64,000 bases of DNA from Chloroflexota bacterium (GTDB lineage Bacteria > Chloroflexota > Dehalococcoidia > DSTF01 > RBG-16-68-14): contig JAJCYW010000009.1 of assembly GCA_029262675.1 (NCBI GenBank), forward strand, positions 47,198-111,197, read 5' to 3'. The position numbers were made by a program, and so were the translations under genes. The notes under the pieces were generated by a model, which saw nothing but the letters and a program-made list of their open reading frames with translations, searched no databases and had not been told where the DNA came from. Every line of letters starts with the position of its first letter. The stretch's first letter is position 1. This document shows, in pieces, positions 8,989 through 55,961 of this stretch.

Positions 8989-9085
8989 TGGAGCGGGAGA
9001 CGAGACTTGAACTCGCGACTCCTTCGGCTGCGTTCAGGACAGGCGGCTGCGTTCAGGACACGCCCTCTGGTTGGGTAGCGTCTGG
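8989..9085 (+). repeat. intergenic repeat family, copy A; minus-strand sense ends in a tRNA-like T-arm + acceptor + CCA; contains an internal 17-bp tandem duplication
   Basis: Core GCGACTCCTTCGGCTGCGTTCAGGACAGGC...CTCTGGTTGGGTAGC is shared with copies at ~16521 and ~32443. The reverse complement ends GCGAGTTCAAGTCTCGTCTCCCGCTCCA (5-bp T-stem, TTCAAGT loop, 7-nt acceptor 3' strand, discriminator T, CCA). Confidence 0.5.
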
Positions 9086-9218
9086 CCCGCTTCCCGTCGA
9101 TGGCCAGGATGCCTTGCCCTGCAAGGCGGACTGAACGACGCGGAAGTCGGTTTTCGTTCGGCGGGCGCGGGCCTGGCCGCCGAACGCCTACAGAGTCAGT
9201 GCGAGAGCGTCAGGTTTC

Positions 9219-10538
9219 CTACGAAGAGCGTGGCCATCGTTTGCCGACTCGCCCTGCTGGCGCTCGCGAGTGGGAAGTGTGCTGAGCCCTCGGGTTTCGT
9301 TGCGGTGGGCGCCGGCCCAAGGCCGGGCGCGTTCGCCGGACGCCGTTCGCATGGGGTTGCGCGGCGATGGGCTCACCGTCCAGTGTCATACGGGGCAACG
9401 TGCGGCCCAGACCACGCTCGATCTTGTGCCACTTCGGCAGGTCGGCCGGGCCTAGCAGCGTGATGGCACGGCCCGAGCGGCCCATGCGGCCGGTGCGCCC
9501 CACGCGATGCGTGAACAGATTGTGCGTCTCCGGCAGGTCATAGTTGATGACACGTTCGATGTGGAGCACGTCTAGTCCGCGCGCGGCGACGTTCGTCGCC
9601 AGCAGGACCGGCATCTTGCCGGCGTCAAACTCGCGCAGCACGCGGTCGCGTTGTGGCTGGCTTAGGTTGCCGTGTAGCACGCCCAGGCTATAGCCCGATT
9701 GCTCCAGCTGCAAGCCCAATCGGCGCACGCCGTGCTTCGTTCGGCCGAAGACAAGCGTCCCGCCCGAAGTCGGCTCGTCCAGAAGACGGCGCAGCGCCTT
9801 GACCTTGTCATCGCTCCGGAGCTCATAGATGACGTGGTCAATGTCGGGCAGCGTGTCTTGTTCCGCGCCCAACTCAATCACGACAGGCTCGCGCAGATAC
9901 TTTGCTGAGACCTCGTGGACCCAGGCTGGCGTTGTTGCTGAGAAGAGCGCCGTCTGGCGTTCTCGCGGCGTGGCGGCAAGGATGCGCTCGACGTCCCGTG
10001 CGAACCCGCGGTCGAGCATCTCATCCGCTTCGTCGAGCACCAAGTAGCGCACCTGGTTCAGTCGCAACGAGCCTCGGTTTAGCAGGTCGACGAGCCGTCC
10101 CGGCGTGCCGACTATGATCTGCACGCCCCTCCGGATCGCCTTTTCCTGGGGACCGATCGATCGCCCGCCGTAGACGATGGCTGAGCGTTTGCCCGTCCCT
10201 GCGATGAGCTGTGAGAGCACCGCGCCGACCTGTTGCGCAAGTTCACGCGTGGGCACCACGACAAGTGCGCTCGGCAATCGCTCGCCGGGCTTCGTACTCT
10301 GCGCGAGTGGTAGGCCGAAGGCAAGAGTCTTGCCTGAGCCTGTGGCTGCCTGGCCAATCAAGTCGCGGCGCTCAAGCAGTGGAGGGATCGCCGCCATTTG
10401 GATGGGGGTCGGCGTGTCTATTTGCATTGCGCTGAGCGCCTTCAGAAGCGAGGCGCTCAGTTGGAATTCGCGAAATGTTGTCAACGTGTGCCTTTCATGT
10501 GAGATTCCGATGGGATTGCGGGTAGCGAAACGCCCCAC
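9219..10538 (-). CDS. DEAD-box ATP-dependent RNA helicase
   Basis: Q-motif (F..TPIQ), Walker A AATGSGKT, DEAD, SAT, HRVGRTGR motifs. Basic Arg/Pro-rich C-terminal tail. Confidence 0.9.
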   Translation of the reverse strand: MGRFATRNPIGISHERHTLTTFREFQLSASLLKALSAMQIDTPTPIQMAAIPPLLERRDLIGQAATGSGKTLAFGLPLAQSTKPGERLPSALVVVPTRELAQQVGAVLSQLIAGTGKRSAIVYGGRSIGPQEKAIRRGVQIIVGTPGRLVDLLNRGSLRLNQVRYLVLDEADEMLDRGFARDVERILAATPRERQTALFSATTPAWVHEVSAKYLREPVVIELGAEQDTLPDIDHVIYELRSDDKVKALRRLLDEPTSGGTLVFGRTKHGVRRLGLQLEQSGYSLGVLHGNLSQPQRDRVLREFDAGKMPVLLATNVAARGLDVLHIERVINYDLPETHNLFTHRVGRTGRMGRSGRAITLLGPADLPKWHKIERGLGRTLPRMTLDGEPIAAQPHANGVRRTRPALGRRPPQRNPRAQHTSHSRAPAGRVGKRWPRSS

Positions 10539-10541
10539 GGT

Positions 10542-10931
10542 CTATGCCTTGGGGTGGGCTACCCATTTTCGTCCGACCCCCTCCATCCTGAGTCGCTGAT
10601 AGATCATGGTGCGGATACCATCAGAGCTCGTGAGGAGCTCTCCATCATGGTTATACAGGCGATACCGGATGTTCTCGTCAGCGTCTTCCGGAACAGATAG
10701 CAGCAACTCGCCGCCGGTGGAGTGAACGTCAACCCCTTCGGGGTAGTGCTCGAGACCTTCGCGGTCTGAGACAAGGTAGCCTCCAGAGTCGTACAAATGG
10801 AACGCCACCAAGTGGAGGCCATCAGCATCGCACGCAAGTTGCAAGATGTTTTCTGCTGAGCTGGCGTCCATGAACGTTGTGGATGTACCTGGTTGCCGAT
10901 CACCGAACCTCATTGCGCCCTCCATTTGCAC
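10542..10931 (-). CDS. hypothetical protein
   Basis: ORF sits immediately upstream of the helicase on the same strand. No recognisable motifs. Confidence 0.3.
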   Translation of the reverse strand: MQMEGAMRFGDRQPGTSTTFMDASSAENILQLACDADGLHLVAFHLYDSGGYLVSDREGLEHYPEGVDVHSTGGELLLSVPEDADENIRYRLYNHDGELLTSSDGIRTMIYQRLRMEGVGRKWVAHPKA

Positions 10932-11166
10932 TGAAACTAACAGACGTTAGCAGGAGTGCCGTCTCGACAGCGGTGTACGCTAGGTCCGAGAGGCGAGGGG
11001 TGTCGCTGGGCGCATCCAGCGCTTCCAGCGTCAAGAACTTGCGACACGACCAGTGTCGATCCGGGTCGATGCCTCGCTGTGCCGCGCGAGTAGCCGCGCG
11101 ACCTCGGGTTGGAGTGAGGGCAGCAACGGTACGTTGGACGCGTTGCTGCCCCTCACTCGGGTTCTC

Positions 11167-11382
11167 TCAGCTACTGAGCCGTACGTGGGCCGCGCGGCTT
11201 CTGTTCGGCTGCTTGGGGTCGGGCTCGGCGTCGAACTCGACCGTCTGGCCTTCGTTCAACTCATCGAACGTGGGCTCGTCGACCGAACTGCTGTGGAAGA
11301 AGACCTCTTCCGTACTGTCCGAGGGCTTGATGAAGCCGAACCCCCGGTCACGAACGATCCTGGATATGTTTCCTGTCGACAT
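11167..11382 (-). CDS. cold-shock protein (CspA family)
   Basis: MSTGNISRIVRDRGFGFIKP...EVFFH...GQTVEFD carries the RNP1/RNP2 cold-shock-domain motifs. AAGGAGGA RBS. Long upstream non-coding region (11383-12001), typical of csp 5'UTRs. Confidence 0.85.
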   Translation of the reverse strand: MSTGNISRIVRDRGFGFIKPSDSTEEVFFHSSSVDEPTFDELNEGQTVEFDAEPDPKQPNRSRAAHVRLSS

Positions 11383-12001
11383 GTGTGTTCCTCCTTGGAA
11401 CCTACTGGACGCCGGTCGGCGTCCTAAGAACGCTAATTATGGGCGCCACTCTTGACGCGCGGCGCGGTGGCGTTAGTTTGTTCGCGCCTCCGCCTTGGCG
11501 ACGTGCTTGTGCGTTGCCCGCGCGCGGACAATGCCGCGTGCGTGGGTCGTTGATGTGACGTCGCGGCGATGTTTGGCGTCACGCCAGACGCGGGAGCGCT
11601 GGACGGCCAAGCCGAAGCGGTCGAGGGGCCACGCGGCTCTCTCGTTATCGCGACGTTCGAGGTTCCGAGCGACGGCCCTCGGGGCGATGTTTCATGCGGT
11701 TGAGCGCCCGGGTGACGGTGGACTAGGTTTTTCTGAATATGAACCTTCTGAATCGCGTCCTGGCCGCCGAGTGCAGAAGGAAGGTGGGATTCTTCGCCTG
11801 CGGGTCGAAGACGAGGTGGCCTGTTGTACATACTGTAGCATGCGCAGGCTGGATAGGCCAGCGTGCGTCGGCAGTACGGGAATCCCGGCGAACTGCGCTC
11901 GCGCCTCACGTGGGCCACAAATACTTCCCAGAGGACCTGGTGAATGAGCGCCCTGGAATCGAATGACTGAGCGCGGGGTTCGCCGATGACGGGGCGACAA
12001 G

Positions 12002-12631
12002 GTGGCACCGTATGACTCCCCAGAGGGCGTAATTGGCCTGCTTGTGACCAGCGGGGCCGGCGGTGCGACCTACCTGAGCCGGCAGTACTCCTCCTACTTC
12101 ATGGAACAAATCGGGCTTGGGCTCGTAATCGGCCTGGGACTGTGGGTCGGCGTGAATGTTGCCTTGATCGTGACTCTTCGGAACGACGAGAGGCCATGGC
12201 GAAAGGAGCTGGGCGAAATCTGGGGTGAGGCGTTCTTCTACGCTGCGCTGCTCCAGGCGATTGTGTTCGTGGGCCTGATCTTCATGGCGATGTCTGTGAT
12301 GACTGGGTCCGCCTCTCTGCCCGACTCCTCCACACTGACACTTGATATGTTTGTCGGTGCCGGCTATCTTTCGTGCTTCGTATTCGGGGCCACAGCTCTG
12401 TACTGCGCGACGATGTCGGACACTTCGGCGCCGCGGTTGCTGGGCGGCATCCTCTCGCTCATCACGATCGGGTTGGCGCTATACATGCTCCTACTACACC
12501 GCGGAGCCTTGGAGACGTTCCAGGGTAACCATCAGTTCGCGTTCGTGTGGCTGGGAATCGCTTACCTGGGTGTCTTCTCGGCTGTCATCATGCACGCCTA
12601 TCGACTCTCCCTTGGCGGCATGAAGCTCTAA
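12002..12631 (+). CDS. hypothetical integral membrane protein (~6 TM)
   Basis: Multiple hydrophobic helices. Divergent from csp. Start uncertain (internal Met at MEQIGLGL). Confidence 0.35.
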   Translation: MAPYDSPEGVIGLLVTSGAGGATYLSRQYSSYFMEQIGLGLVIGLGLWVGVNVALIVTLRNDERPWRKELGEIWGEAFFYAALLQAIVFVGLIFMAMSVMTGSASLPDSSTLTLDMFVGAGYLSCFVFGATALYCATMSDTSAPRLLGGILSLITIGLALYMLLLHRGALETFQGNHQFAFVWLGIAYLGVFSAVIMHAYRLSLGGMKL

Positions 12632-12686
12632 CCGGGGCGGACCACCGCACGCGCCGAGGAGGAGTGCCGGCCTTGCCGCGGTCGCG

Positions 12687-13805
12687 CTACCAACGGGCCT
12701 GGTGTTCCTCGATGAAGCCCACCACGTCGCGCAGAGTCACCTCTTGCCCGTCATCCGTGGTGAACGTCCCACTGTAGTGGCCAAAGACCTGATGGACCTC
12801 GCTCTTGACGAGCAGCAGGTTGGTGCGCGCCACGCGCTCCTTAAACGGCGCGAACTCGAGACGGAGGCGACCATCGGAGGACGTCATGCGCCAGGGCCGC
12901 ATGAGATCGCCGCGGTCGTACTGGATGGCGATCTCATCGAGCTTGTGCACGTGTCCGTCCACGATGACGGCGTTGTCCGGGGCGCCGGCATCGCCGAAAC
13001 CGGCGCCCATGTTAAGACCGACAGTCTGTCCGTTCTCCAGGAACGCAGAGGCGCTGGCCCAGATCCAGGAGGTTTGGTAGGCCCAGACGCCGCGTCCCCA
13101 GTCCAACGTGCCCAGGGATTGGGTCGGCCGGAGTTCGATTCGCCTGTCTCCGTGTTCGATCCGTCCTTCGCTGGGGAGGCAGTTGACTTTCCGTGTGTAG
13201 AAGAAGCGCCGCCCTCCCGTCGGCGTCATGGTCACGACGGATTCATGTGAGGGCGGACAGTGGAGCGTCAGGTCGGCGGCGATCCCCGTACCGGAGCCGA
13301 AACTTGGCCAGCGCACCTGGACTCGGCGCGCCTCCGCCTCGGGCTCAAAGGCCACGCGGACGCGGCCGTTGTCGAACCAACTCTCCCCTGTGCCGCTGTT
13401 GCGAGCGAGGTGGATTCCCCGCCCCAACGGCGCCAGCAACGTTTCCTCAGTTAGCTCGTTCGTGGCGAAGTCCAGGATGTAGACGAAGATGGTGCCGACA
13501 TATCCCAGGTGAGCCAAGGTGACGGAAAAGAAGCACTCCGGTGCCGCGACCGCGTAGTAGTCCCAACGCTTGAGACGCAGGGCCTGAAGAGGGCGCAGCG
13601 GCACGGACCGGGCGAATTCGAGATTGCAGTCGAGATACGGCTGGCGGGCCCACCCAGCGTGCGCCAACTCGCCCCGTTCATCGAGGAGGATGCCGGGAGC
13701 CGTGACCTCGTTCAGCTCGTTTCTCCCTCCTGATTGCACAGCGTAGCGTCGGGCGCTGTGAGTCGCAATGGTGCTGGCGCGCTCGGAGGTGTAGGCCGTC
13801 AGCAT
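12687..13805 (-). CDS. DUF2804-family protein
   Basis: Motifs ...LLDERGELAHAGWAR...L.RWDYY...TLAHLGYVG..FVYILD match my recollection of DUF2804 (KEWDYY region). About 370 aa. Confidence 0.45.
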   Translation of the reverse strand: MLTAYTSERASTIATHSARRYAVQSGGRNELNEVTAPGILLDERGELAHAGWARQPYLDCNLEFARSVPLRPLQALRLKRWDYYAVAAPECFFSVTLAHLGYVGTIFVYILDFATNELTEETLLAPLGRGIHLARNSGTGESWFDNGRVRVAFEPEAEARRVQVRWPSFGSGTGIAADLTLHCPPSHESVVTMTPTGGRRFFYTRKVNCLPSEGRIEHGDRRIELRPTQSLGTLDWGRGVWAYQTSWIWASASAFLENGQTVGLNMGAGFGDAGAPDNAVIVDGHVHKLDEIAIQYDRGDLMRPWRMTSSDGRLRLEFAPFKERVARTNLLLVKSEVHQVFGHYSGTFTTDDGQEVTLRDVVGFIEEHQARW

Positions 13806-13967
13806 GCTCGATCCCGTCCTGGCCAGTCAAAGAAGCGTGAGTTGGCCGTTGACCAGTCGACCGGGCGAGGCGGCGTGGTGGCACCACGCTGGCCGATCGA
13901 TGACGTTGCGACTATGAACCTGATCGAGGGCCCAGCCGTGTCACAGACGCGCCCTACTGGACAATCG

Positions 13968-14586
13968 CGATCAGGCCGGCAATGTACTGGAGGATTAGGG
14001 CTGCGTCGATGGCGTCGACGCTGCTGTTCTGGTTCACGTCTGCAGCGTTCTGACAGGGCAACGAATCGATCAGCCCCGCGCCGAACTGCAGGAGCAGCGC
14101 TGCGTCGATGGCGTTGATCGCGCCGCTACAGTCAACGTCTCCGACCGAGCTGCCGGGCGGTGGTGCTTGGGTCGCTGTCGGTGGCGGCCGGTTGCTCGTC
14201 GTGCGTCACCGAGGATGACGCCGCCTCAAGCGAACCTCCCGGATCGAAGAGCGAGATATCGACGTTTCCCTCCTCGGCGCTGAATCGGGCGTCGACCTGG
14301 AGTTGCTCGTCCGCTGCTAGCCAGAGGGAGAACCAGTCATCGTCGCCAGGACAGGCCCACATGAAAAGCCCCGTGAACGGCACCCTATGGGCAACGCTGT
14401 CGTCCGCGAATCGTACCCCTCCAAGGAGTCGTCGACACAGGCTGCGGGGCCGGCGGGCTCTTGTCCTAGGGAAGGCATTGCGCCTCCAAGACCGAGGATC
14501 GAGCTAGAGGCAAGCCAGAGCGCGGCCACCGTGGCGATGCCGCCTCCAGCTAGCGACAGTGTCAGACGCCGAGTGATGGATCCCAA
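13968..14586 (-). pseudogene. frameshifted gene for a secreted protein: signal peptide, then a pre-peptidase-C-terminal (PPC)-like domain, then a dockerin-like Ca-binding module; the coding path needs two frame changes
   Basis: Three consecutive overlapping minus-strand reading frames. First: MGSITRRLTLSLAGGGIATVAALWLASS (signal). Second: ...DDDWFSLWLAADEQLQVDARFSAEEGNVDISLFDPGGSLEAAS (PPC-like). Third, with no start codon: ...GDVDCSGAINAIDAALLLQFGAGLIDSLPCQNAADVNQNSSVDAIDAALILQYIAGL, ending at the TAG near 13968. The third segment is homologous to the dockerin module inside 22325..26095. Confidence 0.45.
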
Positions 14587-14662
14587 ACCCTTCCGTGCCG
14601 GTCAGGTCAAGGTCACAATGAGCCGCGGCTCATCTCTGGCGTTTTGGGTCAGGTGAGAATAC

Positions 14663-16366
14663 TTGGCTATATTGATTGGTGGCTGCGGAGGCTCCAACGC
14701 CTCGGCCAAACGACCTTCAGAGCATAGATTCACTGCTTGCTTACCGAGGAGATCCAAATTGGCCGAGTACCTCTGGTGGAAACACGGCGTTATCTACCAG
14801 ATCTACCCCCGCAGTTTTCAGGACTCAAACGGTGACGGTATTGGCGATCTGAAGGGCGTGATCGATCGCCTTGATTACCTCAACGACGGTACGGAGCAGT
14901 CGCTCGGTATCGATGCGATCTGGTTCTCGCCAACGTATCCATCGCCGATGGCGGACTTTGGATACGACGTGTCCGACTACGAGGACGTGCATTCGGACTT
15001 CGGCGATCTGGCGACGATGGACCGATTGATCGAAGAAGCGCATAAGCGCAATATTCGGGTCATCCTTGACTTCGTCCCGAACCACACGTCGTCACTGCAC
15101 CCATGGTTTCTCGAATCGCGAACGTCAAGAGACTCGCCGAAACGCGACTGGTACGTATGGCGGGACGCGAAACCGGAAGGAAGCCCGCCCAACAACTGGA
15201 TCGCGGCGTTTGGCGGGCCGGCATGGGAATGGGACCAGAACACGCATCAATACTATCTGCATTCATTCCTCGTGGAGCAGCCCGATTTGAACTGGCGCAA
15301 CCCAGAAGTCGTCGCGCGGATGCACAACGTGCTTCGATTCTGGATGCGGCGCGGCGTCGACGGCTTTCGTATCGATGTGATGGACCGAGTCGTCAAAGAC
15401 CCGGAGCTGCGCGACAATCCACCACAGACCAATCCCCGGTACCGAGAAATGGCCCAGACCGCGCTCCAGATCCACCAGTACGATGTTAACTGGCCGGACA
15501 TCATCGACATCGTGCGCGGCATACGCAGCGTCGTGGATGAGTTCCCGGAGCGCATGACCGTTGGAGAAGTCTTCGGGCGGCCGAAACAAATCGTCGAGTA
15601 CTACGGTACGGACGGCCACGACGGACTCCACTTGGCGTTCAACTTTCCCTTCGTTCGCATTCGGGACAAACGTTGGACAGCGGAGCATGTGCGGAACGTT
15701 GTCGATGCCTTTGAGCAGGCGCTGACCCCAGGCGCCTGGCCGAACCACGTCTTTGGCAACCACGATGTAGACCGCTTGGTCAGCCGTGTGAATAACGACG
15801 GGCGGGGACAGGAGCGGGCGCGCCTTGCGGCGCTGTTGCTACTCACCGTGCGCGGCACGCCCTTCATCTACTATGGAGAAGAACTCGGCATGGAGAACGC
15901 GGTTATCCCGGAGGAGAAGCTCCAAGACCCGGCACGCATCTTCGCGCCCGGGCGCGATCCGGAGCGGACGCCGATGCCGTGGACCCGGAAGGGCGGTTTT
16001 ACAACGGGCGAGCCGTGGCTGCCGTACGGCGACCTGACGCAAAACGTCGCCGACCAAGCCGGCGATCCGCGTTCGCTGCTCACGCTCTATCGCCGCCTGC
16101 TCTGGTTCCGGCGTGCGTCTGATGCGCTGCGGGTTGGCGACTATACACCGGTCGACGTCGCGGCAGATGGTATCTTCGCCTACACGCGGACGACCGGAGA
16201 CGACCGTCTTCTTATGGTGCTCAACTTTACGACCGACATCGTTGACGTGGTTCTGCCGGAGGACTTGCGCGTGACAGCAACGGTCATCGGGACGCACGGC
16301 GAGCCGGCGGCAACGCAGAAGATGACGCTGGCTGGAAACGAAGGGCGCGTACTGCGCTTGGCGTAG
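14663..16366 (+). CDS. GH13 alpha-glucosidase / oligo-1,6-glucosidase-family (TreS-like) glycoside hydrolase
   Basis: WWKHGVIYQIYPRSFQDSNGDGIGDLKGVIDRLDYL...GIDAIWFSP...ILDFVPNHTS...DWYVWRD are GH13 conserved regions I-II. TTG start at 14663. Confidence 0.8.
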   Translation: MAILIGGCGGSNASAKRPSEHRFTACLPRRSKLAEYLWWKHGVIYQIYPRSFQDSNGDGIGDLKGVIDRLDYLNDGTEQSLGIDAIWFSPTYPSPMADFGYDVSDYEDVHSDFGDLATMDRLIEEAHKRNIRVILDFVPNHTSSLHPWFLESRTSRDSPKRDWYVWRDAKPEGSPPNNWIAAFGGPAWEWDQNTHQYYLHSFLVEQPDLNWRNPEVVARMHNVLRFWMRRGVDGFRIDVMDRVVKDPELRDNPPQTNPRYREMAQTALQIHQYDVNWPDIIDIVRGIRSVVDEFPERMTVGEVFGRPKQIVEYYGTDGHDGLHLAFNFPFVRIRDKRWTAEHVRNVVDAFEQALTPGAWPNHVFGNHDVDRLVSRVNNDGRGQERARLAALLLLTVRGTPFIYYGEELGMENAVIPEEKLQDPARIFAPGRDPERTPMPWTRKGGFTTGEPWLPYGDLTQNVADQAGDPRSLLTLYRRLLWFRRASDALRVGDYTPVDVAADGIFAYTRTTGDDRLLMVLNFTTDIVDVVLPEDLRVTATVIGTHGEPAATQKMTLAGNEGRVLRLA

Positions 16367-16520
16367 CTGCCACAAAGCCGTCGGGCGAGAGCCAGGCTTG
16401 CGCAGACCGCGCCGAGACGTCGCGCCGAATCTGGCGCGTCTCGTTCGGAAGGGAAATCGGTGGTTGGCTGCGAGGTCGCTGGTAACGCGGGGTCGTGGGA
16501 GGTCAAAACTCATCCATATC

Positions 16521-16582
16521 TGTGGGCTGCATTCGCAACTCCTTCGGCTGCGCTAAGGACAGGCTCTCTGCCTGGGAAGCAT
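16521..16582 (+). repeat. intergenic repeat family, copy B (degenerate at the tRNA-like end)
   Basis: GCAACTCCTTCGGCTGCGCTAAGGACAGGCTCTCTGCCTGGGAAGCA aligns with copies A and C. Lies between the GH13 stop and the glgA start. Confidence 0.45.
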
Positions 16583-16742
16583 CGGTTCGCGGTGCGCAAA
16601 GGTGGGGGAGAGTGCGGCTTGAGGCCGCTTGCGGGCGTGAAGTTCATGTGAACGTCCGGCTCCTCATGGTATGGTTCAGGCCTAGATCGTCGGGGCCGAC
16701 TGCCGCGGTCCAGCGTCTGGTCGGCCTAGCAGCGAATGAACG

Positions 16743-18200
16743 ATGACGTTGAGACCGCTTCGGATTCTATTCGCGGCTGCGGAAGCCTATCCCTTTGCCA
16801 AGGTTGGCGGCCTTGCCGATGTTGCTGCCTCCTTGCCGAAAGCGCTCACGGGACTAGGTCACGATGTCGTGACGGTCGTGCCCGGGTATCCGTCCGTCCC
16901 GAGAGCGCGGCTGGAGTTCAAATTGGAGATACCGATCGCCGAACGAGTCGAGGTCGCTACGGTCTATAGCTATGCGATTTGTGGCGGGCAGATGTTCACA
17001 GTCTCGAACGATGCCTACTTCGGGCGCGATCGGATCTATGGCTATGAAGACGATGACGAGCGCTTCATCTTCTTCTCGAAAGCAGTTGTCGGAATCGCGG
17101 CACGGACGGGCTTCGAGCCAGATATTCTGCATGGGCATGACTGGCACCTCGGGCTCGCGCCTCAGTACGCCCGCCAAGGACCACACCGCGATGCTCTCGC
17201 GGGAATGGGCATCGTCTTTACGATGCATAACGTTGCTTATCAAGGGCCGTATTCGGAGACCGCGGAGGACCTCATCGGGCTGCAGCAGGCATTCGACGGC
17301 AACCTTCCCTCGCGCGGTATCTCGTTCGCCGACAAGATCACGACCGTAAGTCCCTGTTACGCGAAGGAGATTCTTACGTCGGAACACGGACATGGTTTGG
17401 AAGAACGCCTGCGATCGCGAACCGCAGATCTCCATGGCATCCTTAACGGTATCGATAGCGATGAATTCAACCCCGAGACAGACGGCAATATCAGCGTGCC
17501 CTATAGCGCGCTGGACGTTTCTCAGAAGGCGCCGAACAAGCGCGCGCTCCAGGAGAGGGCTGGACTGACACTGGATTCGAGATCGCCGTTGCTTGCCATG
17601 GTCGCCCGGCTTGTCGATCAGAAAGGGTACGCGATCTTGCTCCGAGCGCTGGACAGAATCGTCGACCTCGGCGCCCAGGTCGTGGTTAACGGCATCGGCG
17701 AAGAGCGGTATGCTCAAGCGCTGGCTGAGGCGGTGGAGCGTCATCCCGGGCACGTCGCCCACCTAGCCACGGATGACGAGACTACGGCACGGCAGGTGTA
17801 CGCGGGCGCAGACCTGCTGCTGGCGCCATCGAACTTCGAGCCGTGCGGTCTCACACCGCTCATCGCCCTACGCTACGGTACGATACCTATTGTGAGACGG
17901 ACGGGTGGACTGGCAGATACAATTGTCGACTACCTGGAGGATCCTGCCGCGGGGATCGGATTCACGTTCATGAGGAAGTACGCAGGCCAGCTTGTGCGGG
18001 CGATAAACAATGGTATTGTCCTGTACAGGAACGTAGACGAGTGGCGGCGTCTGCAGAGGAGAGCCATGTCCGCGGATTTCTCTTGGAAGACATCGGCGTT
18101 GGAGTATGGGCGCCTGTACCGCAGTGCCATCACGGCGGCCTCAGGTGCGGGCCGCGACCGAATTCCGGAAGGCGATCTCCAACCGAGCCGGGGCGGCTAA
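16743..18200 (+). CDS. glgA: glycogen/starch synthase-family GT5 glycosyltransferase
   Basis: N-terminal KVGGLADV motif and C-terminal E..PCGLTPL..LRYGT motif, both characteristic of GT5. 485 aa. Confidence 0.85.
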   Translation: MTLRPLRILFAAAEAYPFAKVGGLADVAASLPKALTGLGHDVVTVVPGYPSVPRARLEFKLEIPIAERVEVATVYSYAICGGQMFTVSNDAYFGRDRIYGYEDDDERFIFFSKAVVGIAARTGFEPDILHGHDWHLGLAPQYARQGPHRDALAGMGIVFTMHNVAYQGPYSETAEDLIGLQQAFDGNLPSRGISFADKITTVSPCYAKEILTSEHGHGLEERLRSRTADLHGILNGIDSDEFNPETDGNISVPYSALDVSQKAPNKRALQERAGLTLDSRSPLLAMVARLVDQKGYAILLRALDRIVDLGAQVVVNGIGEERYAQALAEAVERHPGHVAHLATDDETTARQVYAGADLLLAPSNFEPCGLTPLIALRYGTIPIVRRTGGLADTIVDYLEDPAAGIGFTFMRKYAGQLVRAINNGIVLYRNVDEWRRLQRRAMSADFSWKTSALEYGRLYRSAITAASGAGRDRIPEGDLQPSRGG

Positions 18201-18738
18201 GGAGGATTACCGCAGATCGGACAACGCGCTGCGAAGCGGGTGCGGCGAGAGCCAGCGCGCTTCGATACGACGCCTCGTCTCCCACGGGACTCCCCCAATG
18301 TCACGACGATCTACATGTGCGTAACATTCCTTGCGCACTAGGCGATAGTACCTACGGAGATTGTCATCGCCCGCGTAACCGATATGGTAACGTTCACCCA
18401 TGCCTGGCATGTAGCCTGCCGGGCAGCCGTTTTGGGATGCTTTAACCACGGTTTAAGGACGCCTTAACCTTCTATCCGCTAGCATGACTGACAGTTGGAG
18501 CATTTCTCGCATCGACCCGCGGTAGGGTTCCCGCAGGCGCCAGGCAGCTCCCGGAGGAATACGGTAGGCGAGCACGTCAGGCGTTCCCCCTTTCAGCGAA
18601 CTTCCACATATTTCGGGTGGCCGTCGGGCAGGCCAAAAGAGGAGACAGGCAATCGGATTTAGGTGGGCTGTAGCGATCCTCATTCTTGCCGGCGTCGGTA
18701 TCGCGGGCGCCTCATTCGCGTTCTTCACGCTCCTCCAG

Positions 18739-26095: not shown

Positions 26096-26149
26096 GAGAA
26101 TGAGCATGCCATCGAACGTCAGTAGCACTATGGAGGACAGGTACTAGTC

Positions 26150-27172
26150 ATGGCGAAGAATCCGCTGTTCTTTCTCGTTGGATGCTCGCGATCCGGAACG
26201 ACACTGGTTCAACACATGATGGACGCGCATGAGCAACTGGCGGTTGTCCCGGAGACGCGCTGGTTCGTTCATTGGTTCGACAAGCGCTACGGCATATCGG
26301 AAGACGGATTCGTTACTCCCGATCTGGTTCCCAGGTTGCTTCAGCGGCATCGCCTGTTCAGAGATGCGGACATCGGCGTGACGCAGCAGCAACTGGAACA
26401 CTTGGTTTCGGATGGCGGGAAAATGCGGTATCAGGATTTCGTTTCAATCCTCTTCGATCGCTATGCCGAGGCACGCGGCGTCGCGCACGCGGGAAACAAG
26501 ACTCCCGGATATGTGCGCAGCCTGCAAACCATCCACTTACTGTGGCCGGCCGCCAAGCTTATCCACGTCATTCGCGACGGGCGCGAGGTGAGTCTCTCCA
26601 TCATCCAGAAGCGGACGATGAGAAACCGGCCGGGCAAGCCGGGTGGCCGCTTCGCGACATGGCAAGAAGACGCGGTGACGACGTCGGCGCTCTGGTGGGA
26701 GTGGAACGTCAGGCTCGGCCAGGAAGCCGGCAGAGCCATCGGCCCCGGCCACTACTACGAGCTTCGCTACGACGCGCTCGTCGCGCGCCCTGAGGCCGAG
26801 AGCAGAGCCCTGTGCGATTTCCTAGGTGTGCCGTTCGACGATGCGATGCTCCGCCATCATGAGGGGCGCGTGAAAGCGGATCCCCGCCTGGTCGAGAAGC
26901 ACACAGGGCTAGATAAGCCCGTGACCGCCGGGATGCGAAACTGGAACACAGAGATGCCGCGCGACGATATCGAACGATTCGAAGCCTCGGCCGGCGGTCT
27001 CTTGGAAGAACTCGGCTACGAGTTCGGCGTTCAGAACCATTCGCCGGAGAGTCTAGCGCACGCGGCGCGACTTCGAGGGCTGTTCATGGGACGGCCCTTG
27101 CCAGAAAACTGGCGCGCCTGGAATGGCACGCGCGGTTCAGTAGAGGCGCATGCAGACCACGTGGGAAACTGA
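26150..27172 (+). CDS. sulfotransferase-family protein (Stf0 / Sulfotransfer_3-like)
   Basis: N-terminal 5'-PSB loop FFLVGCSRSGTTL, plus ...HVIRDGREV and ...YYELRYDALV motifs typical of the family. Confidence 0.65.
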   Translation: MAKNPLFFLVGCSRSGTTLVQHMMDAHEQLAVVPETRWFVHWFDKRYGISEDGFVTPDLVPRLLQRHRLFRDADIGVTQQQLEHLVSDGGKMRYQDFVSILFDRYAEARGVAHAGNKTPGYVRSLQTIHLLWPAAKLIHVIRDGREVSLSIIQKRTMRNRPGKPGGRFATWQEDAVTTSALWWEWNVRLGQEAGRAIGPGHYYELRYDALVARPEAESRALCDFLGVPFDDAMLRHHEGRVKADPRLVEKHTGLDKPVTAGMRNWNTEMPRDDIERFEASAGGLLEELGYEFGVQNHSPESLAHAARLRGLFMGRPLPENWRAWNGTRGSVEAHADHVGN

Positions 27173-27287
27173 CGAGATCGGACGGCCAGCGGTCGTTCAA
27201 CTGCAAACAGGCGCGAGAGAACGGAATGGCACGGGATGCCCGTGGAATCAGGCCAAGGACGGCCGGACTGATGAACGGAGGAGAGAC

Positions 27288-29351
27288 ATGGTGCATTTGA
27301 AAGTCCGACCCAGGAATACGATCCTCTTGGCCGCCGCCGTCGCTCTCGGCCTCGTCGTGGTGTGGGGCATAAGCATCATTTACGCAACTCTCACCACGCC
27401 CACCATGGATCTTAAGTCGACGACAGCGGACGTCACGATCCTGGGAGCGACAGGCGGATTACCTCAAGGCGACGCCATCGGCAGGCGTCTTGCGGCGGGA
27501 GATTTCAACGGCGACACGATAGCCGATGTTCTCATCGGCGCGCCAAACGCGGACGGGCCGGGTAATGCTCGCCTCGACTCGGGGGAGGCCTACGTCGTCT
27601 TTGGGCGGAGCGTCGGATCGCCGATCACGGTCGACATCAATAGCGGCGGCCAGGACGTCACGATTGTCGGCGCCGCCACGGGGAACCGCCTTGGCACGGC
27701 CGTCGCAGCCGGAGACGTCAACGGTGATACGTTCGACGACGTCATCATCGGCGCATCGGAGGCCGCCAACGGAGCGCTGTTGAGCGCCGGCGCGGTCTAT
27801 GTATTCTACGGTTCGGCAGCGATTTCCGGCACCAAGGACATCTCCAGCGTCGCGCCGGACGTGACGATCAAGGGCGGCAGCGCCCTGGATAAGCTCGGCC
27901 AAGCGCTCGCCGCGGGCGACATCGACAACGATGGCGATGACGACATCATCATCGGCGCACCACGGTCGCCCGCCGGCGGCCGGGCAGAAGCCGGCCAGGT
28001 CTACGGCATCTTCGGCTCCGGTTCGCTGCCCGCGACGCTCACGACCGGCGCCCTGGGAACGGCCGGATTCTCAATCATCGGCGCGAGTTCAGGCGACACG
28101 CTTGGATCCGACGTCGCCGTGGGGCGGGTGGACAGCGACAGCAACGCGGACATCCTCATCGGCGCGGAAAACGCGCTAGATGCCATCGGGGTCATGAGCG
28201 GTGAAGCCTATCTTGTGCTGGGCTCCCCGGCGCCCGGCAGCTCGATCGATCTGGCTGTCGGAGGCTGGGCTCTGAAAGTCGTCGGCGCTGATGAGGTAGA
28301 CGAGTTGGGTTCCCGTGTGGTTATCGGCGATGTCAACAACGACGGCTTCGGCGACATGATCATCGCGGCACCGAACGCTGCCGGCCCCGGCAACGTCAGG
28401 AACGCGGGCGGGTTCGGCGCGGGCGAGGCTTACGTCGTCTATGGCGCCGCGACCGTGTCCGGCACGGTCAACATCGTGCCCGGCGGGGGGAGCATCACGA
28501 CCATCTATGCCGCCGAAGCCGAGGATGAGATGAGTCGAGTCGGTGCGGCGGACGTGGATGGCGATACCATCGCTGACATTGTGTTCAGCTCCGACGACGG
28601 AGACGGCGCCGGTAACAGCCGGACCGACGCCGGCGAAGCATTCGTGTCCTACAGTTCCTCCACGCTTCCGGCGGCTGGTACTGTGATCGACGTCGCTGGC
28701 ACAGTGCCGGGCTCGGTCACGCCTGCGCTTACCGTCTTCGCCGCGGAGGCGCTTGATGACCTTGGCGCCGGGTATCTCGTTGCCGACTTCGACGGAGACA
28801 ACGGCGGCGACCTGGTGATCGGCGCGCCGGGCGCGGACGGGCCTTCGAACGGTCGCCCTAACGCAGGCGAGGTCTACGTGCTGCTGGGAGCGGCCGGTAC
28901 GCCACCGGGGCCGACGGCGACGCCTACGATCACGCCGACGCCGTGCCCAGGGGGCAAGGTGCCAGCTAGCGGTGGTGGGTGCGGCACGCCCACGCCGACG
29001 CCTCCCAAGCTCCCGTTCCCCGCCGACACCGACGGCGACGGTTGCGCCGACGTGAACGAGAGCTTACCTAAGGCCCAGTCATCTAATGGCGGGGGCCGTG
29101 ACTGGCTGAACCCCTGGGACTACTACAACGTCAACGGTGACGGCGTCATCGATTTGTTGAACGACATCCTCGGCGTAATCCAGCACTATCAGCCAACGCC
29201 AGGAGGAGCTGCGCCGTACGGCGCAGCATTCGACCGCGGGCCGACTACAGGGCCTCACCCGTGGAACATGACGGCGCCAGACGGTGTCATCGACCTGCTG
29301 AACGACGTTTTGGGAGTAATACTGCAGTACAACCCGACGGGCTGCACATAG
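27288..29351 (+). CDS. FG-GAP repeat protein with an N-terminal signal-anchor and C-terminal dockerin-like Ca-binding repeats
   Basis: Start at ATG 27288 with a GGAGGAGAGA RBS. TM segment ILLAAAVALGLVVVWGISIIY. Repeated GDVNGD...AGE(A/V)YV(V/F)(F/Y)G blades. C-terminal NVNGDGVIDLLNDILGVIQHY ... APDGVIDLLNDVLGVILQY pair. Confidence 0.7.
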   Translation: MVHLKVRPRNTILLAAAVALGLVVVWGISIIYATLTTPTMDLKSTTADVTILGATGGLPQGDAIGRRLAAGDFNGDTIADVLIGAPNADGPGNARLDSGEAYVVFGRSVGSPITVDINSGGQDVTIVGAATGNRLGTAVAAGDVNGDTFDDVIIGASEAANGALLSAGAVYVFYGSAAISGTKDISSVAPDVTIKGGSALDKLGQALAAGDIDNDGDDDIIIGAPRSPAGGRAEAGQVYGIFGSGSLPATLTTGALGTAGFSIIGASSGDTLGSDVAVGRVDSDSNADILIGAENALDAIGVMSGEAYLVLGSPAPGSSIDLAVGGWALKVVGADEVDELGSRVVIGDVNNDGFGDMIIAAPNAAGPGNVRNAGGFGAGEAYVVYGAATVSGTVNIVPGGGSITTIYAAEAEDEMSRVGAADVDGDTIADIVFSSDDGDGAGNSRTDAGEAFVSYSSSTLPAAGTVIDVAGTVPGSVTPALTVFAAEALDDLGAGYLVADFDGDNGGDLVIGAPGADGPSNGRPNAGEVYVLLGAAGTPPGPTATPTITPTPCPGGKVPASGGGCGTPTPTPPKLPFPADTDGDGCADVNESLPKAQSSNGGGRDWLNPWDYYNVNGDGVIDLLNDILGVIQHYQPTPGGAAPYGAAFDRGPTTGPHPWNMTAPDGVIDLLNDVLGVILQYNPTGCT

Positions 29352-29358
29352 CCAAGCT

Positions 29359-30366
29359 ATGATGACCATTCCGACTGACAGCTCCGAGATCGTCGACCTG
29401 TTGCGCGAGCGCGTTCCCGAATTTGCCTCCGGCGCACTGCGAATCGAGTCGTGCGAACCGCGGTGGGTCAGGAAGAAGATGCGCAAGCACCTTGCGGAGT
29501 TCGAGGTTCGATTTCTTGGCCAGGGTGGCAGCCGTCAATCAATCTCAATCATCGCGAAGCAGTACCCAAAAGACAGAGGAGGCCACGCCTATCTCGCGAT
29601 GTGCTGGCTGCACGCGCAAGGCTTCTGGCCAGAGGCGTCGTTGAGCGTCTCGAGGGCGCTATTCTACGATCCGCAGCGATTCCTGCTCTTGCAAGGGAAG
29701 GCAGAAGGGGTGGAGGTGGCGTCGGCCCTGCAGGATGGCGAATCGACTCTGCGCCGTCGTTCGCAACAGGCGGCGCATTGGCTGGCGATGCTACACCAAA
29801 GCGATGGGGGCGGGTTCAAGCGTTCGCGTGCCAGTGCCGTGCGTTCGATTCACTCGCGGTTGAGGCGGCTCGCGAAGGAGTATCCTGACATCCAACCTCG
29901 TCTCGATCGCTTCGGCGAAGAGCTCGTGCAGCGGCTGCGGGACTCCCGGGAGTGCCCCTCCGTACCGACTCACGGCGACTACCATCCGAAGAACATCTTT
30001 GCCCAAGATGACCAGGTGACGGTCATTGACCTCGATCACTTCGGCTTGCGCGAGGCGGCCGCCGACGTTGGGTATTTCCTCGGTCAGATGGCGATTATGG
30101 CGTACCTGAAGCTCGGATCGTTCTCCGCTGCCCTGCCTGCAGTCGATAGCTTCCTGGAAGCGTACCACGACCGCGCAGACCTTCCTGTGCCCTGGGATCG
30201 CACGGCAACTCATGTCAGCCGTACCTTCGTCCAGAGCCTTCACTATGAACTCTGCGTCCTCCGCAACGGGCGGACGGACCTCATCGAAGGGTGGCTCCAC
30301 CAAGCAGAGCAATGGCTCCAATGTGAGAGCCCGGACGGAATCGAAGAGTTACTCGGCAAGTCGTGA
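29359..30366 (+). CDS. protein-kinase-like phosphotransferase (APH/CotS/maltokinase-like family)
   Basis: Brenner catalytic motif HGDYHPKN and metal-binding IDLDHFG. About 335 aa. The start lies 8 nt after the upstream stop. Confidence 0.6.
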   Translation: MMTIPTDSSEIVDLLRERVPEFASGALRIESCEPRWVRKKMRKHLAEFEVRFLGQGGSRQSISIIAKQYPKDRGGHAYLAMCWLHAQGFWPEASLSVSRALFYDPQRFLLLQGKAEGVEVASALQDGESTLRRRSQQAAHWLAMLHQSDGGGFKRSRASAVRSIHSRLRRLAKEYPDIQPRLDRFGEELVQRLRDSRECPSVPTHGDYHPKNIFAQDDQVTVIDLDHFGLREAAADVGYFLGQMAIMAYLKLGSFSAALPAVDSFLEAYHDRADLPVPWDRTATHVSRTFVQSLHYELCVLRNGRTDLIEGWLHQAEQWLQCESPDGIEELLGKS

Positions 30367-32342
30367 CACAACGGATTCCATTTGCACTCGTCCACCACGC
30401 CAACCAGTACCTGATCACGAACGGATACGAGAATCGCGAGGGAGTGTCTAACGTCCTCGATCGGCTCTCGTCGTTCCTTGAGCTTCACGAGCGCTTTAGA
30501 ATCCCATTCAACCTGCACATAAGCGGCACCCTCATCGAGGCGATCCTTTGGTACCGGCCGCGATTTCTGAATCAGGTGAAACGCCTGCGCGAAGCCGGGA
30601 TCGTGAAGCTCGTCGGTGGCTCGTACGGCCAGAACATCATGCCGCTCTCTTCGCCCGAGCATAACCGTCGGCAGCTCCGAGAGCTCCTGAGCGTCTATGA
30701 GCGACACCTCGATTGTCCGCCGGAGACTGTCAAGGTCTGCTGGATACCAGAGCGCGTCTGGAGCACTGAAGCCCTAGCTTCGGCTCTAACAGATGGCGGT
30801 CTTCCCAACGGTGGGTATCGCGCCGTCCTGCTGGACGATCGCTTGCTCTACGACATTGGACGGGCGTATGAAGGCAGTTCTCGTCAGCGCTTCGACGCGA
30901 CCGGTCCGGCGGACGTCCTACCGTGGCCTGACGGCGAGGCGGAGGGTTGGGATCCCGAGAGCGTCTGCGCGATCGCGATCGAATCAGGGAAAGGCCTGGT
31001 CGCCATACCGTTCTCGGCCGGAGTTCGTTACGCAATCCCACCGTCCCGTGAAGGTCATTGGAGCTTCCTGTCGTCGTTCGTCGCCCGACTGCGCGAACAC
31101 GGGCGGCCAAATTCGATCCTCGTATTCGCCGACGACGTTGAGAAGTCGGCCGGTATTGGAAGCTGGGATGCACGAGGTCCGGCTCAATACCGAGCTCTTT
31201 TGAAGTGGCTGGTGAAACATGAGGGGCTACGTCCTGTATTCCTCGACGAGTGGCTTGGCGAGCTGCCTGAGAAGATGCCGCAGAGGCCCATTGATGACGG
31301 AACATTCTACGAACTCGATCGTCAATGGGGAGCCAGCAACGACTATCGTGGTTGGTGGGACAGCGATGCCTGGCGCCCACATCGCGGCTACCTCGAGACG
31401 AGTGAGGCTGCGCTAGCCGACGCTGAGGACGCGGGAGCTGATAAGCGACTGCTGGAGCTTGGCTGGAAGCACCTGCTAGCCTCCTCGTACGAAAGCGGAT
31501 GGTTTGCTGAAACGGGAGGGTCGATTGGGCCAGCACCGTGGTCCCAGGCGCTGGCTAGTCACGCGCGGGCGTCTATAGTGATCGCAGAGGCGGCCAAGTG
31601 GCAGCATGATGTCGATGCGGCGCCGGACGTGAGGCGACTCGATGTTGATGCTGACGGTGAGGAGGAGTTCGTGCTGACCAACGACCAGATCTCTGCCGTC
31701 GTATCTCCAAAGCACGGCGGGAGGCTCGTCTACCTGTTCGAACGCGGAAACGACGGCGGGCGCCTGATGGTCGGTAACCCAACTGACGATTGGAACTGGC
31801 AGCAGGAGCTAAACCGCTACATGGATCAGCCTCCCAACCATCCGGGAGCCTTTGCAGACGTGGGTTTCGAGCACAACGCGTACGAAATCGACGATGTAAG
31901 CTGCGACTCGGATTCAGCAGTCGCTCGCCTCCGCAACACAACTCCGACTAGTCCTCTCACACGATCGAGCAAGACCTTCGCGCTCATGGCCGGCGAGTCT
32001 ATTCTCGTCGTTTGTTACCAGCTAGTAGGGCTTCGATTCCTGTCCACTGAGTTTTGTCTCTCGCCTGACTATCTCAATCTGCTCAGGGACGGGAGCCGGA
32101 ACGTCCGTGCGCTGCGCGGCCCGACGTGGCGAGGCTGGCGCCACGATAACGCTCGAGTCTGGGTTGCGCTGGTGGACGCGGAGCAAACGCAATGGGACAA
32201 GCCAAAGCAGCGTCGCGTTGGACATGGACTCGCTCTGCGTGTGACCGCTCAAACCCCGCACTTCCATGTCGTATTAGGGCTCGGGCGAGTCTCACGAGCG
32301 AAGATGAATCGCGCGATCGATTCTCTGCACAGCGTCCGCTGA
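30363..32342 (+). CDS. GH57-like glycoside hydrolase-family protein
   Basis: N-terminal ...ALVHHANQY and WIPERVW (GH57 region with the catalytic Glu, cf. W(L)xERVW). The GTG start overlaps the upstream stop (GTGA). Confidence 0.5.
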   Translation: MTQRIPFALVHHANQYLITNGYENREGVSNVLDRLSSFLELHERFRIPFNLHISGTLIEAILWYRPRFLNQVKRLREAGIVKLVGGSYGQNIMPLSSPEHNRRQLRELLSVYERHLDCPPETVKVCWIPERVWSTEALASALTDGGLPNGGYRAVLLDDRLLYDIGRAYEGSSRQRFDATGPADVLPWPDGEAEGWDPESVCAIAIESGKGLVAIPFSAGVRYAIPPSREGHWSFLSSFVARLREHGRPNSILVFADDVEKSAGIGSWDARGPAQYRALLKWLVKHEGLRPVFLDEWLGELPEKMPQRPIDDGTFYELDRQWGASNDYRGWWDSDAWRPHRGYLETSEAALADAEDAGADKRLLELGWKHLLASSYESGWFAETGGSIGPAPWSQALASHARASIVIAEAAKWQHDVDAAPDVRRLDVDADGEEEFVLTNDQISAVVSPKHGGRLVYLFERGNDGGRLMVGNPTDDWNWQQELNRYMDQPPNHPGAFADVGFEHNAYEIDDVSCDSDSAVARLRNTTPTSPLTRSSKTFALMAGESILVVCYQLVGLRFLSTEFCLSPDYLNLLRDGSRNVRALRGPTWRGWRHDNARVWVALVDAEQTQWDKPKQRRVGHGLALRVTAQTPHFHVVLGLGRVSRAKMNRAIDSLHSVR

Positions 32343-32442
32343 GCCGCGAGAGCCTTGCGGCCTCCTAAGCCTCCAATTTCAGAGGCCCTAAGCTTCCGCT
32401 ACGAAGGGTCAAAGGCGGGTGAATAGAGGTGATACTGAATCT

Positions 32443-32516
32443 GGAGCGGGAGACGGCGCTCGAATTCGCGACCCCTTCGGCTTCGCTCAGGACAGGCCTC
32501 TGCTTGGGAAGCAGAT
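32443..32516 (+). repeat. intergenic repeat family, copy C
   Basis: TGGAGCGGGAGACGGCGCTCGAATTCGCGACCCCTTCGGCTTCGCTCAGGACAGGCCTCTGCTTGGGAAGCAG. Shares both the 5' TGGAGCGGGAGACG block and the core with copy A. Lies between convergent genes. Confidence 0.45.
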
Positions 32517-55945: not shown

Positions 55946-55961
55946 GAAGCGAGGTGCAGTC

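Follow-up and report, generated by a model that had tools for sequence, protein, structure and literature searches.

How did a set of short repeats, one of them with a tRNA-like end, come to be scattered through the intergenic gaps of a contig from a Chloroflexota bacterium? The contig is JAJCYW010000009.1, of which positions 47,198 to 111,197 were analyzed (64 kb in total, hereafter "the window", with positions counted from its first nucleotide). The repeat family consists of four copies, named A, B, C, and D, which lie within 24 kb and in the same orientation, their tRNA sense being the minus strand, and all of them sit between open reading frames (ORFs) that have Pfam support or a coding-type GC pattern. 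On balance, the explanation favored here is a nested one, in which the copies would be attachment-site (att) type relics of tRNA-Gly(CCC) and three of them would carry a pan-bacterial insertion of 24 nt.

The four copies and the tRNA-Gly(CCC) gene

The initial annotation of the window had recorded A, B, and C in non-coding gaps, and all three were recovered there. Their core, CCTTCGGCT[G/T]CG[T/C]T[C/A]AGGACAGGC on the plus strand, occupies 9021-9044 (A), 16541-16564 (B), and 32474-32497 (C). Similarity by chance or through low-complexity sequence is refuted, as the core pattern has three matches in the window compared to 0.01 expected from shuffled sequences, and a profile built from the three copies detects A, B, and C with nhmmer E-values of 1e-16 to 1e-23. 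The same profile also recovered the fourth copy, D (nhmmer E = 0.04), which had been missed; the family described earlier is real, although it has four members rather than three. D consists of TGGAGTGGGAGACGACGCTCGAACGTGCGGCG followed by CTCTGCTTGGGAAG, that is, both flanking blocks with the core missing, and it matches TGGAGTGGGAGACG with one mismatch. The 24-nt block of A, B, and C (CCTTCGGCTNCGCTCAGGACAGGC) is at the variable-loop position and is absent from D and from real tRNAs. The copies and their parts are as follows, with the evidence for each in parentheses.

8239-8284, minus strand: copy D, tRNA-Gly(CCC)-like 3' fragment from the anticodon loop to CCA, insert-free ("empty-site" paralogue) (motif match, nhmmer, tRNA-Gly alignment)
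8989-9080, minus strand: copy A, whole composite (motif, profile, alignment)
8989-9019, minus strand: intact T arm of A (GCGAG/TTCAAGT/CTCGT), acceptor 3' strand CTCCCGC, discriminator U, and CCA (sequence, tRNA matches)
9021-9044, minus strand: 24-nt insertion module of A, CCTTCGGCTGCGTTCAGGACAGGC on the plus strand, with a predicted hairpin on the minus strand (motif, covariation)
9045-9061, minus strand: 17-nt partial tandem duplicate of the insert in A, GGCTGCGTTCAGGACAC (profile, alignment)
9065-9080, minus strand: decayed anticodon-arm remnant of A, CTCTGGTTGGGTAGCG on the plus strand (alignment A3)
16512-16581, minus strand: copy B, whole composite, with the T arm and acceptor part degenerate or deleted (profile, alignment)
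16541-16564, minus strand: 24-nt insertion module of B, CCTTCGGCTGCGCTAAGGACAGGC (motif)
16566-16581, minus strand: anticodon-arm remnant of B, TGCTTCCCAGGCAGAG on the minus strand (alignment)
32442-32515, minus strand: copy C, whole composite, best preserved overall (profile, alignment; 91-92% identity to the two copies on metagenome contig L166, see below)
32442-32473, minus strand: CCA, discriminator U, acceptor 3' strand, and T arm of C, the latter with a broken stem (exact block, alignment)
32474-32497, minus strand: 24-nt insertion module of C, CCTTCGGCTTCGCTCAGGACAGGC (motif; removal gives a gap-free tRNA-Gly alignment)
32499-32515, minus strand: perfect anticodon arm of C, TCTGC-TTCCCAA-GCAGA, with anticodon CCC for glycine (sequence, alignment)

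On the minus strand, A ends with GCGAG-TTCAAGT-CTCGT-CTCCCGC-T-CCA, which is a perfect T arm, acceptor 3' strand, discriminator, and CCA, in agreement with the tRNA-like 3' end proposed for it in the initial annotation. The 5' block that A was said to share with C is TGGAGCGGGAGACG, found exactly at two sites (8989 and 32442), and the 17-bp internal duplication of A is also real, with GGCTGCGTTCAGGACAG at 9026-9042 and GGCTGCGTTCAGGACAC at 9045-9061 (period 19). The minus strand of C contains, in order, TCTGC-TTCCCAA-GCAGA (a perfect anticodon arm with CCC), the core, GGTC, a degenerate T arm, CTCCCGC, T, and CCA. The CTCTGC..GGGAAGC block had been correctly reported as conserved but was not recognized as an anticodon arm; the block CTCTGCNTGGGAAGC is the reverse complement of the Gly-CCC anticodon arm. 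The state of decay differs amongst the copies, as C and D have a disrupted T stem, the acceptor part is gone in B, and the anticodon arm is mutated in A. The odd structure of A is not the artifact of a single assembly because the independent Logan assembly L178 is 100% identical over 1 kb containing both A and D.

In a MAFFT alignment (A3), all four copies are colinear with tRNA-Gly(TCC) of locus L117 and tRNA-Gly(GCC) of locus L003 from the anticodon stem to CCA, and the extra block of A, B, and C falls between the anticodon stem and the variable loop. D is colinear both with real tRNA-Gly genes and with C after removal of the insert. For scoring, 24 nt were taken out of C, and the comparison set consisted of 14 tRNAs called by ARAGORN in the fetched loci. 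The tRNA-Gly scores were 30 for C without its insert, 25 for A, and 23 for D, and other tRNAs scored 13 or less, with two tRNA-Gly amongst the 14 tRNAs. Every one of the 5426 E. coli genomes also has annotated tRNA genes that match the 3' end of A at 88-90%. The top BLAST match was E. coli leuW, and an origin from tRNA-Leu was considered, but it was rejected as the discriminator U and the anticodon CCC are consistent with glycine.

The front part of the gene is missing. The 5' acceptor strand and D arm are absent in all four copies, and the DNA 5' of the anticodon arms is unrelated to tRNA. ARAGORN called no tRNA genes in the window, Rfam gave no matches on it at the gathering threshold, and an Rfam search around A, C, and D at E <= 10 yielded neither tRNA nor any other family. 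The initial annotation had allowed for an ordinary complete tRNA at A, and none was called there by ARAGORN or Rfam. Considered as functional tRNAs, all copies lack a complete cloverleaf, and only A retains the T arm, acceptor 3' strand, discriminator, and CCA together. Judged from these alignments, the copies are very likely 3' fragments of tRNA-Gly(CCC) that comprise the back two-thirds of the gene and have variously decayed, and those in the window are probably inert relics.

A 24-nt module in many bacterial phyla

The initial annotation had treated the conserved core as a feature of a local family. The core is real, but it belongs to a pan-bacterial module, apparently an insertion, nested in the tRNA-Gly(CCC) fragment. 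When one genome per species was scanned for CCTTCGGCTNCGNTNAGGACAGG, at least 120 loci were obtained, compared to approximately one match expected by chance (our arithmetic). The flanks are unrelated between loci, and at least 14 phyla are represented among the matches listed. According to record titles, the hosts belong to the Acidobacteriota, Chloroflexota, Planctomycetota, Cyanobacteriota (Nostoc), Bacteroidota, Pseudomonadota, Myxococcota, Desulfobacterota, Binatota, Fibrobacterota, Gemmatimonadota, Verrucomicrobiota, Nitrospirota, Methylomirabilota, Armatimonadota, and Spirochaetota. Cultured isolates with the 24-mer include Maribacter, Croceitalea, Aestuariivivens, and Pseudothauera, and the Nostoc instances are L006, L046, L060, and L079. 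The conserved stretch has sharp edges and reads Y-CCTTCGGCT-N-CGCTCAGGACAGG-C-T, in which N is fully free and the other two positions left unconstrained in the search pattern are 96-98% conserved. The 24-mer is rare on viral contigs (10 matches only), and a literature search by its peptide and nucleotide strings returned nothing relevant.

An adapter or assembly artifact was rejected as a source of the 24-mer on the basis of lineage-specific flanks, carriage by isolates, filled and empty pairs inside one genome, and the independent assembly L178. A clustered regularly interspaced short palindromic repeat (CRISPR) was also rejected because the tandem arrays repeat the whole unit and lack spacers. 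A general link between the 24-mer and the tRNA T arm was not retained, as the two are adjacent in 2 of 125 instances, seen only in the window and at L071.

To find filled and empty sites, the flanks of every instance were fused directly, and the fetched DNA was searched for the resulting sequence. This gave 11 pairs in other genomes, which together with C and D in the window make 12. The gap in the pairs is 24 or 25 nt, and neither a target-site duplication nor a shared target sequence was found. In Maribacter, two paralogous group II introns (Rfam RF02001) form a pair in which one is 25 nt longer at CTGAC^GAACAGG. In another pair, two Reg_prop paralogues, which are 67% identical, differ by an insert of 8 amino acids (WRYD[PSAALRTG]SGTF). 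The other pairs include a terminator-like hairpin (L080), the loop of a GTCATCCTGAGC..GCGAAG unit (L082), and Nostoc L046 versus L060, and a repeat of ~170 nt in the Acidobacteriaceae exists in both filled and empty forms. We are confident, though less than certain, that the core is an insertion, and across these pairs the 24-mer behaves like an extremely small mobile element.

The ~170-nt repeat is itself interspersed and specific to the Acidobacteriaceae. It was seen at L001:2436-2720, where it ends in a ..GCGCTTCGCTCAGGATGAC unit, and its relatives occur at L018, L029, L034, L043, L050, L067, L070, L081, L093, L095, and L103.

Approximately 29% of the instances lie within ORFs of at least 150 amino acids, in either orientation, and the 24-mer is found in frame inside genes such as FtsW/RodA (L086) and at L038. 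The module is able to persist in genes because it is 24 nt long and leaves five of six frames open. Hairpin loops appear to be favored targets, since the flanks form exact inverted repeats of at least 7 bp in 13 instances compared to 2.9 expected. The insert is nested in the loop of CCTGAGC..CGAAGG units at L082, L048, L051, L055, and L106, and it is located within tandem arrays at L071, L056, and L088. In an Rfam search of the related loci, only host RNAs (a group II intron and a tRNA) overlapped the 24-mer.

There is also a wider family of hairpin units of ~25 nt with the form TCA-NNNN-GAGCGNAGCGA-N'N'N'N'-TCT, along with GAGC(C/T)TGTCGA variants (e.g., L031, L033, L082, and L102). The loop of the TCA..TCT units is conserved and their stems covary, and they are frequent targets of the 24-mer. 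When translated, these units give spurious peptides such as VILSEAKDL or PFDKLRAN.

Two further observations concern local repetition of the 24-mer. In the rRNA operon spacer of Croceitalea dokdonensis (L071:5610-5819), 3.3 tandem units of 64 nt stand directly 3' of tRNA-Ile, each made up of a 22-nt spacer, the 24-mer, and 19 nt from the 3' end of tRNA-Ile. The module is fused here, in a second case, to the 3' part of a tRNA, with the junction at the T loop. Moreover, local reiteration affects each half of the 24-mer, CCTTCGGCTNCGCT as well as CAGGACAGG (L088:2660-2802, L085, L020, L107, and L056:5747-6013), and L056 has whole units at a period of 62 nt. This pattern suggests slippage-prone or modular behavior.

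The reverse complement of the 24-mer, GCCTG(T/C)CCT-GA-GCGNAGC-C-GA-AGG(R), contains GCGNAGC, in which N is the free position, and the putative compact hairpin sequence is GCCTGTCCTGAGCGNAGCCGAAGGR. GCGNAGC is a DNA mini-hairpin motif (PMC13037366). The tRNA-sense strand of the insert, ..GA-GCGNAGC-CGA.., resembles this motif and has a fully free N, whereas related units have loops such as GAGCCTGTCGA without the GNA motif, and standard energy models indicate no stability. Covariation was found at the position pair (-1, +19), which amongst 156 instances is T/A in 75, C/A in 67, C/G in 14, and T/G in none, with T/G expected in ~7 under independence (p ~1e-4, our arithmetic). On the reverse-complement strand, this pair is T-A, T.G, or C-G and never C.A. 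Pairing is restricted to the reverse-complement strand because C/A would be a mismatch on the plus strand, and the pairing strand is the tRNA-sense strand in the window. In related units with the loop GAGC-N3-5-CGA, the 5-bp stems covary freely, and 35 of them have at least four contiguous pairs compared to 4.3 expected. Further copies and covariation, the lack of which would have refuted the family according to the initial annotation, have thus been found.

The 24-mer may move via a single-stranded hairpin intermediate (RNA or single-stranded DNA) with the help of an enzyme encoded elsewhere. Several results weigh against such an intermediate. Nearest-neighbor folding of the 24-mer, on both strands and as RNA and DNA, gave no excess stability, and no neighboring protein family is linked to the 24-mer around 120 loci of the genome scan, the largest cluster covering 10 loci. 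The orientation of the 24-mer has no bias relative to local GC skew (57:50) or, across genomes, relative to neighboring genes. This lack of bias speaks against replication coupling of the IS200/IS605 type and against a strand-specific role in host transcripts.

Amongst known systems, the closest analogue of the 24-mer is the group of small dispersed repeats (SDRs, SDR1-8) of the Nostocaceae, reportedly "very small mobile repeated elements" of 21-27 nt. Common to both are the size, the precise presence or absence in homologous sequence (12 pairs here), the nesting in related or tandem repeats, the lack of a linked gene, and a predicted hairpin with compensatory change (here one covarying pair in 156 instances). 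The SDRs are said to be confined to the Nostocaceae, in contrast to a 24-mer found in at least 14 phyla. Rickettsia palindromic elements (~100-150 bp, one genus) insert in frame into protein-coding genes. As with these elements, host genes of the 24-mer stay open (L038 and L086), but the Rickettsia elements are longer and genus-restricted.

REP and REPIN sequences are species- or genus-specific, have a 5' GTAG, occur as inverted pairs, and are mobilized by RAYT transposases (PMC3116915, PMC3479197). They resemble the 24-mer in being short, intergenic, hairpin-forming repeats without an adjacent gene, whereas the 24-mer is near-identical across phyla, occurs singly, lacks GTAG, and is also located in coding DNA. 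Likewise, the terminal inverted repeats and target-site duplications of miniature inverted-repeat transposable elements (MITEs) are absent in the composite and at the 24-mer junctions. The 24-mer is thus neither a REP/REPIN nor a MITE, and it belongs to no Rfam family. The suggestion of a MITE/REP-like element in the initial annotation was close to the truth for the core.

Origin of the copies

A metagenome scan for TGGAGCGGGAGACG-N12-24-CCTTCGGCT returned 45 loci, of which 41 are ordinary tRNA-Gly(CCC/UCC) genes and three (L166, L141, and L160) are composites like those of the window. On L166, the module lies in the variable region of a full-length tRNA-Gly(CCC). The Rfam tRNA match (52.5 bits, E 3e-9) spans the whole model with a 28-nt insertion, and the gene is missed by ARAGORN. 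A second copy on L166, located 1.17 kb downstream in the same orientation, is 96% identical and contains only the segment from the anticodon stem to CCA, starting exactly at the anticodon stem. Bacterial tRNAs with a long variable arm (class II) are those for Leu, Ser, and Tyr, and glycine tRNAs belong to class I. The insert of L166 is at the position of the long variable arm and is accepted by the Rfam tRNA model as a variable-region insertion. Unlike in class II tRNAs, the arm of this predicted tRNA, ~28 nt long, derives from an insertion.

The composites of L141 (3651-3836) and L160 (1746-1923) are part of a 185-nt block that is 90% identical, has sharp ends, and lies on contigs that are otherwise unrelated. 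In this block, 110 nt of unknown non-coding sequence without an Rfam match are fused to the composite at the anticodon loop. The block could represent the terminus of an integrative element, or else an unknown RNA.

The last 9-10 nt of the reverse complement of the 24-mer, AAGCCGAAGG, are identical to the anticodon-stem 3' strand and variable loop of ordinary tRNA-Gly(CCC/UCC) at 41 metagenome loci (L133-L177). This identity could be a coincidence, a hint at the origin of the module, or microhomology at insertion.

Integrative elements that recombine in the anticodon loop reportedly leave duplicated 3' segments of the tRNA (attL/attR). The repeats of the window resemble such duplications, as they are direct repeats with a unit that extends from the anticodon stem/loop as far as the tRNA 3' end. 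The full gene and fragment of L166, 1.17 kb apart, and the non-tRNA block abutting the anticodon loop in L141 and L160 fit the same pattern. They differ from known duplications in that the window has no integrase, intact tRNA, or island-like DNA and that a 24-nt insert is present in the variable region. Looking for the individual marks of an att duplication, the direct repeat corresponding to the tRNA 3' part from the anticodon loop region to the 3' end was found, a full-length tRNA at the end of the array was found on L166 but not in the window, and a tyrosine or serine recombinase with island-like DNA between the repeats was not found.

In the proposed outer layer of events, an integrative element would recombine inside the anticodon loop and thereby duplicate the segment from the anticodon stem to CCA, the fragment copies presumably being made by an integrase. 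The four copies, now non-functional, would each have arisen independently, with a single conserved tRNA gene or attP-like copy as their source. D, which is insert-free and the most downstream copy in the tRNA sense, is where the native 3' end would be expected in a tandem-integration series. In the inner layer, the source tRNA would have had a 24-nt insertion, (Y)CCTTCGGCTNCGCTCAGGACAGG(C), at the start of the variable loop, and this insertion would be a member of the family of 24-25 nt modules that occurs in many phyla, in hairpin loops, structured RNAs, other short repeats, and coding sequence.

The window copies are not the nearest relatives of each other. Copy C shares 91-92% identity with the copies on L166, but 82% with A and 69% with B. 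Moreover, the T stem covaries between lineages, with GCGAG/CTCGT in one and GCGGG/CCCGT in another. Together with the gene and fragment on L166, the copy identities and this compensatory change argue for repeated copying from a conserved, once-functional, insert-bearing tRNA rather than for copy-and-paste of a MITE. The same evidence bears on the proposal that the composite (~75-95 nt) is itself a non-autonomous element, similar to a MITE or a short interspersed nuclear element, that copies within the genome. Four intergenic copies in one orientation within 24 kb, the lack of an integrase nearby, and related composites on three other metagenome contigs would fit such an element. It is nevertheless unlikely, as the composite has no terminal inverted repeats or target-site duplications, its copies are not mutually closest, its 5' boundary, at the anticodon stem/loop, is that of att duplications, the insert is missing from D, and a metagenome scan for the junction of insert and anticodon arm gave no matches.

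Relic att sites of tRNA-targeting elements, one of the options listed in the initial annotation, are now the best reading of the tRNA-like flanks. That the copies are att-type relics of an insert-bearing tRNA gene is nevertheless given slightly less than an even chance because of several points against it. A Pfam search of the 43 ORFs of the window identified no integrase, transposase, reverse transcriptase, or other mobile-element gene, and neither ARAGORN nor Rfam found the full-length tRNA that such an array should contain. The genes between the copies are ordinary chromosomal ones (glycogen metabolism, a DEAD-box helicase, and an ABC transporter), and the GC profile is flat (0.60-0.68) without islands. 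On L166, there is no integrase between the repeats, where only an ORF with a PRC-barrel occurs, and its full-length tRNA, the only insert-bearing one found, has an A3.C70 mismatch and G38. This tRNA may itself be decaying.

The positions of the copies relative to genes raise a different explanation. A, C, and D sit 134, 146, and 152 nt 3' of stop codons on the same strand, those of a DEAD helicase, a luciferase-like monooxygenase, and a 75-aa membrane ORF, and the insert has its hairpin-forming sequence on the sense strand, as would suit tRNA-like elements of the 3' untranslated region that act in processing, stabilization, or termination of the upstream gene. However, B is antisense, between two plus-strand genes, and decay is visible in the T stem of C, the acceptor part of B, and the anticodon arm of A. 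Folding of the composites showed no excess stability (z-scores of -0.9 to +0.7), Rfam matches are lacking, and across genomes the 24-mer has no orientation bias relative to genes. Copy A is also not present 3' of the helicase orthologues L121 and L122, which are 84-85% identical at the protein level. Such a function is thus quite unlikely, and the structured non-coding RNA or tRNA-derived small RNA considered in the initial annotation has little support for the same reasons, namely the Rfam and folding results, the decay, and the absence of A in relatives.

Finally, the copies could be retro-copies, for which a reverse transcriptase would be primed at the CCA of tRNA-Gly and stop near the anticodon arm before the cDNA is integrated, the 24-mer being acquired via template switching. 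Retro-copying would account for 3' ends that lie precisely at CCA in every copy and for truncation on the 5' side. It would also agree with the fusion of the 24-mer to the tRNA-Ile 3' terminus (last 19 nt) in the 3.3 tandem 64-nt units of L071 and with the presence of the 24-mer inside a retromobile group II intron. We consider this origin very unlikely, however, since an insert between colinear tRNA segments needs two precise template switches, D represents a fragment without the insert, no reverse transcriptase gene was found in the window, and the adjacency of T arm and motif is limited to 2 of 125 instances.

With the att-type reading preferred for the flanks, a more far-reaching version of the nested explanation can be considered. 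The 24-25 nt module could be a "nano-element", mobilized in trans across most phyla, that landed in tRNA-Gly(CCC) of a Chloroflexota-like lineage, where the long-arm tRNA was then copied by integrative elements. The module would enter the loops of other hairpins as a single-stranded hairpin, and the long-arm glycine tRNA would have remained under tRNA-type constraint long enough for the compensatory change in the T stem. This scenario is possible but doubtful. If the 24-mer is a true mobile unit across phyla, it would be amongst the smallest mobile DNA known, and its near-identity across phyla would imply a conserved or widely transferred mobilizing machinery. It would add eight codons to real proteins, split structured RNAs, and seed spurious ORFs in metagenome annotations (peptides LRLRSGQA or PSAxLRTG), and, for tRNA biology, a long extra arm on a glycine tRNA would be unusual. 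Taken alone, the window represents a modest finding.

Surrounding genes

The nearest named relatives of the helicase upstream of A are from metagenome-assembled genomes of the Chloroflexota/Dehalococcoidia. In L122 (2140-3004), where the helicase is 84% identical, a tRNA-Lys(TTT) is located beside a phage-integrase gene downstream of the helicase, and arrangements of an integrase with a tRNA therefore occur at this position in the lineage. Between D and A, a 75-aa ORF (8447-8674, minus strand) with a hydrophobic C-terminal half has no Pfam match but a coding-type GC1/2/3 pattern, and it is also called as a gene in assembly L178.

Glycogen and starch genes (alpha-amylase, glycogen synthase, and GH57) are encoded at 14663-18200 and 30363-32342, split by a 12-kb block that contains three FG-GAP repeat proteins, an ABC exporter, a sulfotransferase, and an APH-type kinase. 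The segment that runs from glgA to GH57 has copy B at one edge and copy C at the other. The cumulative GC skew climbs steadily over the whole window, which therefore contains no replication origin or terminus. At 53165-62330, a 4Fe-4S subunit, a NarJ-like chaperone, and a MobB-FmdE fusion are encoded between two genes for molybdopterin oxidoreductases of 926 and 943 aa.

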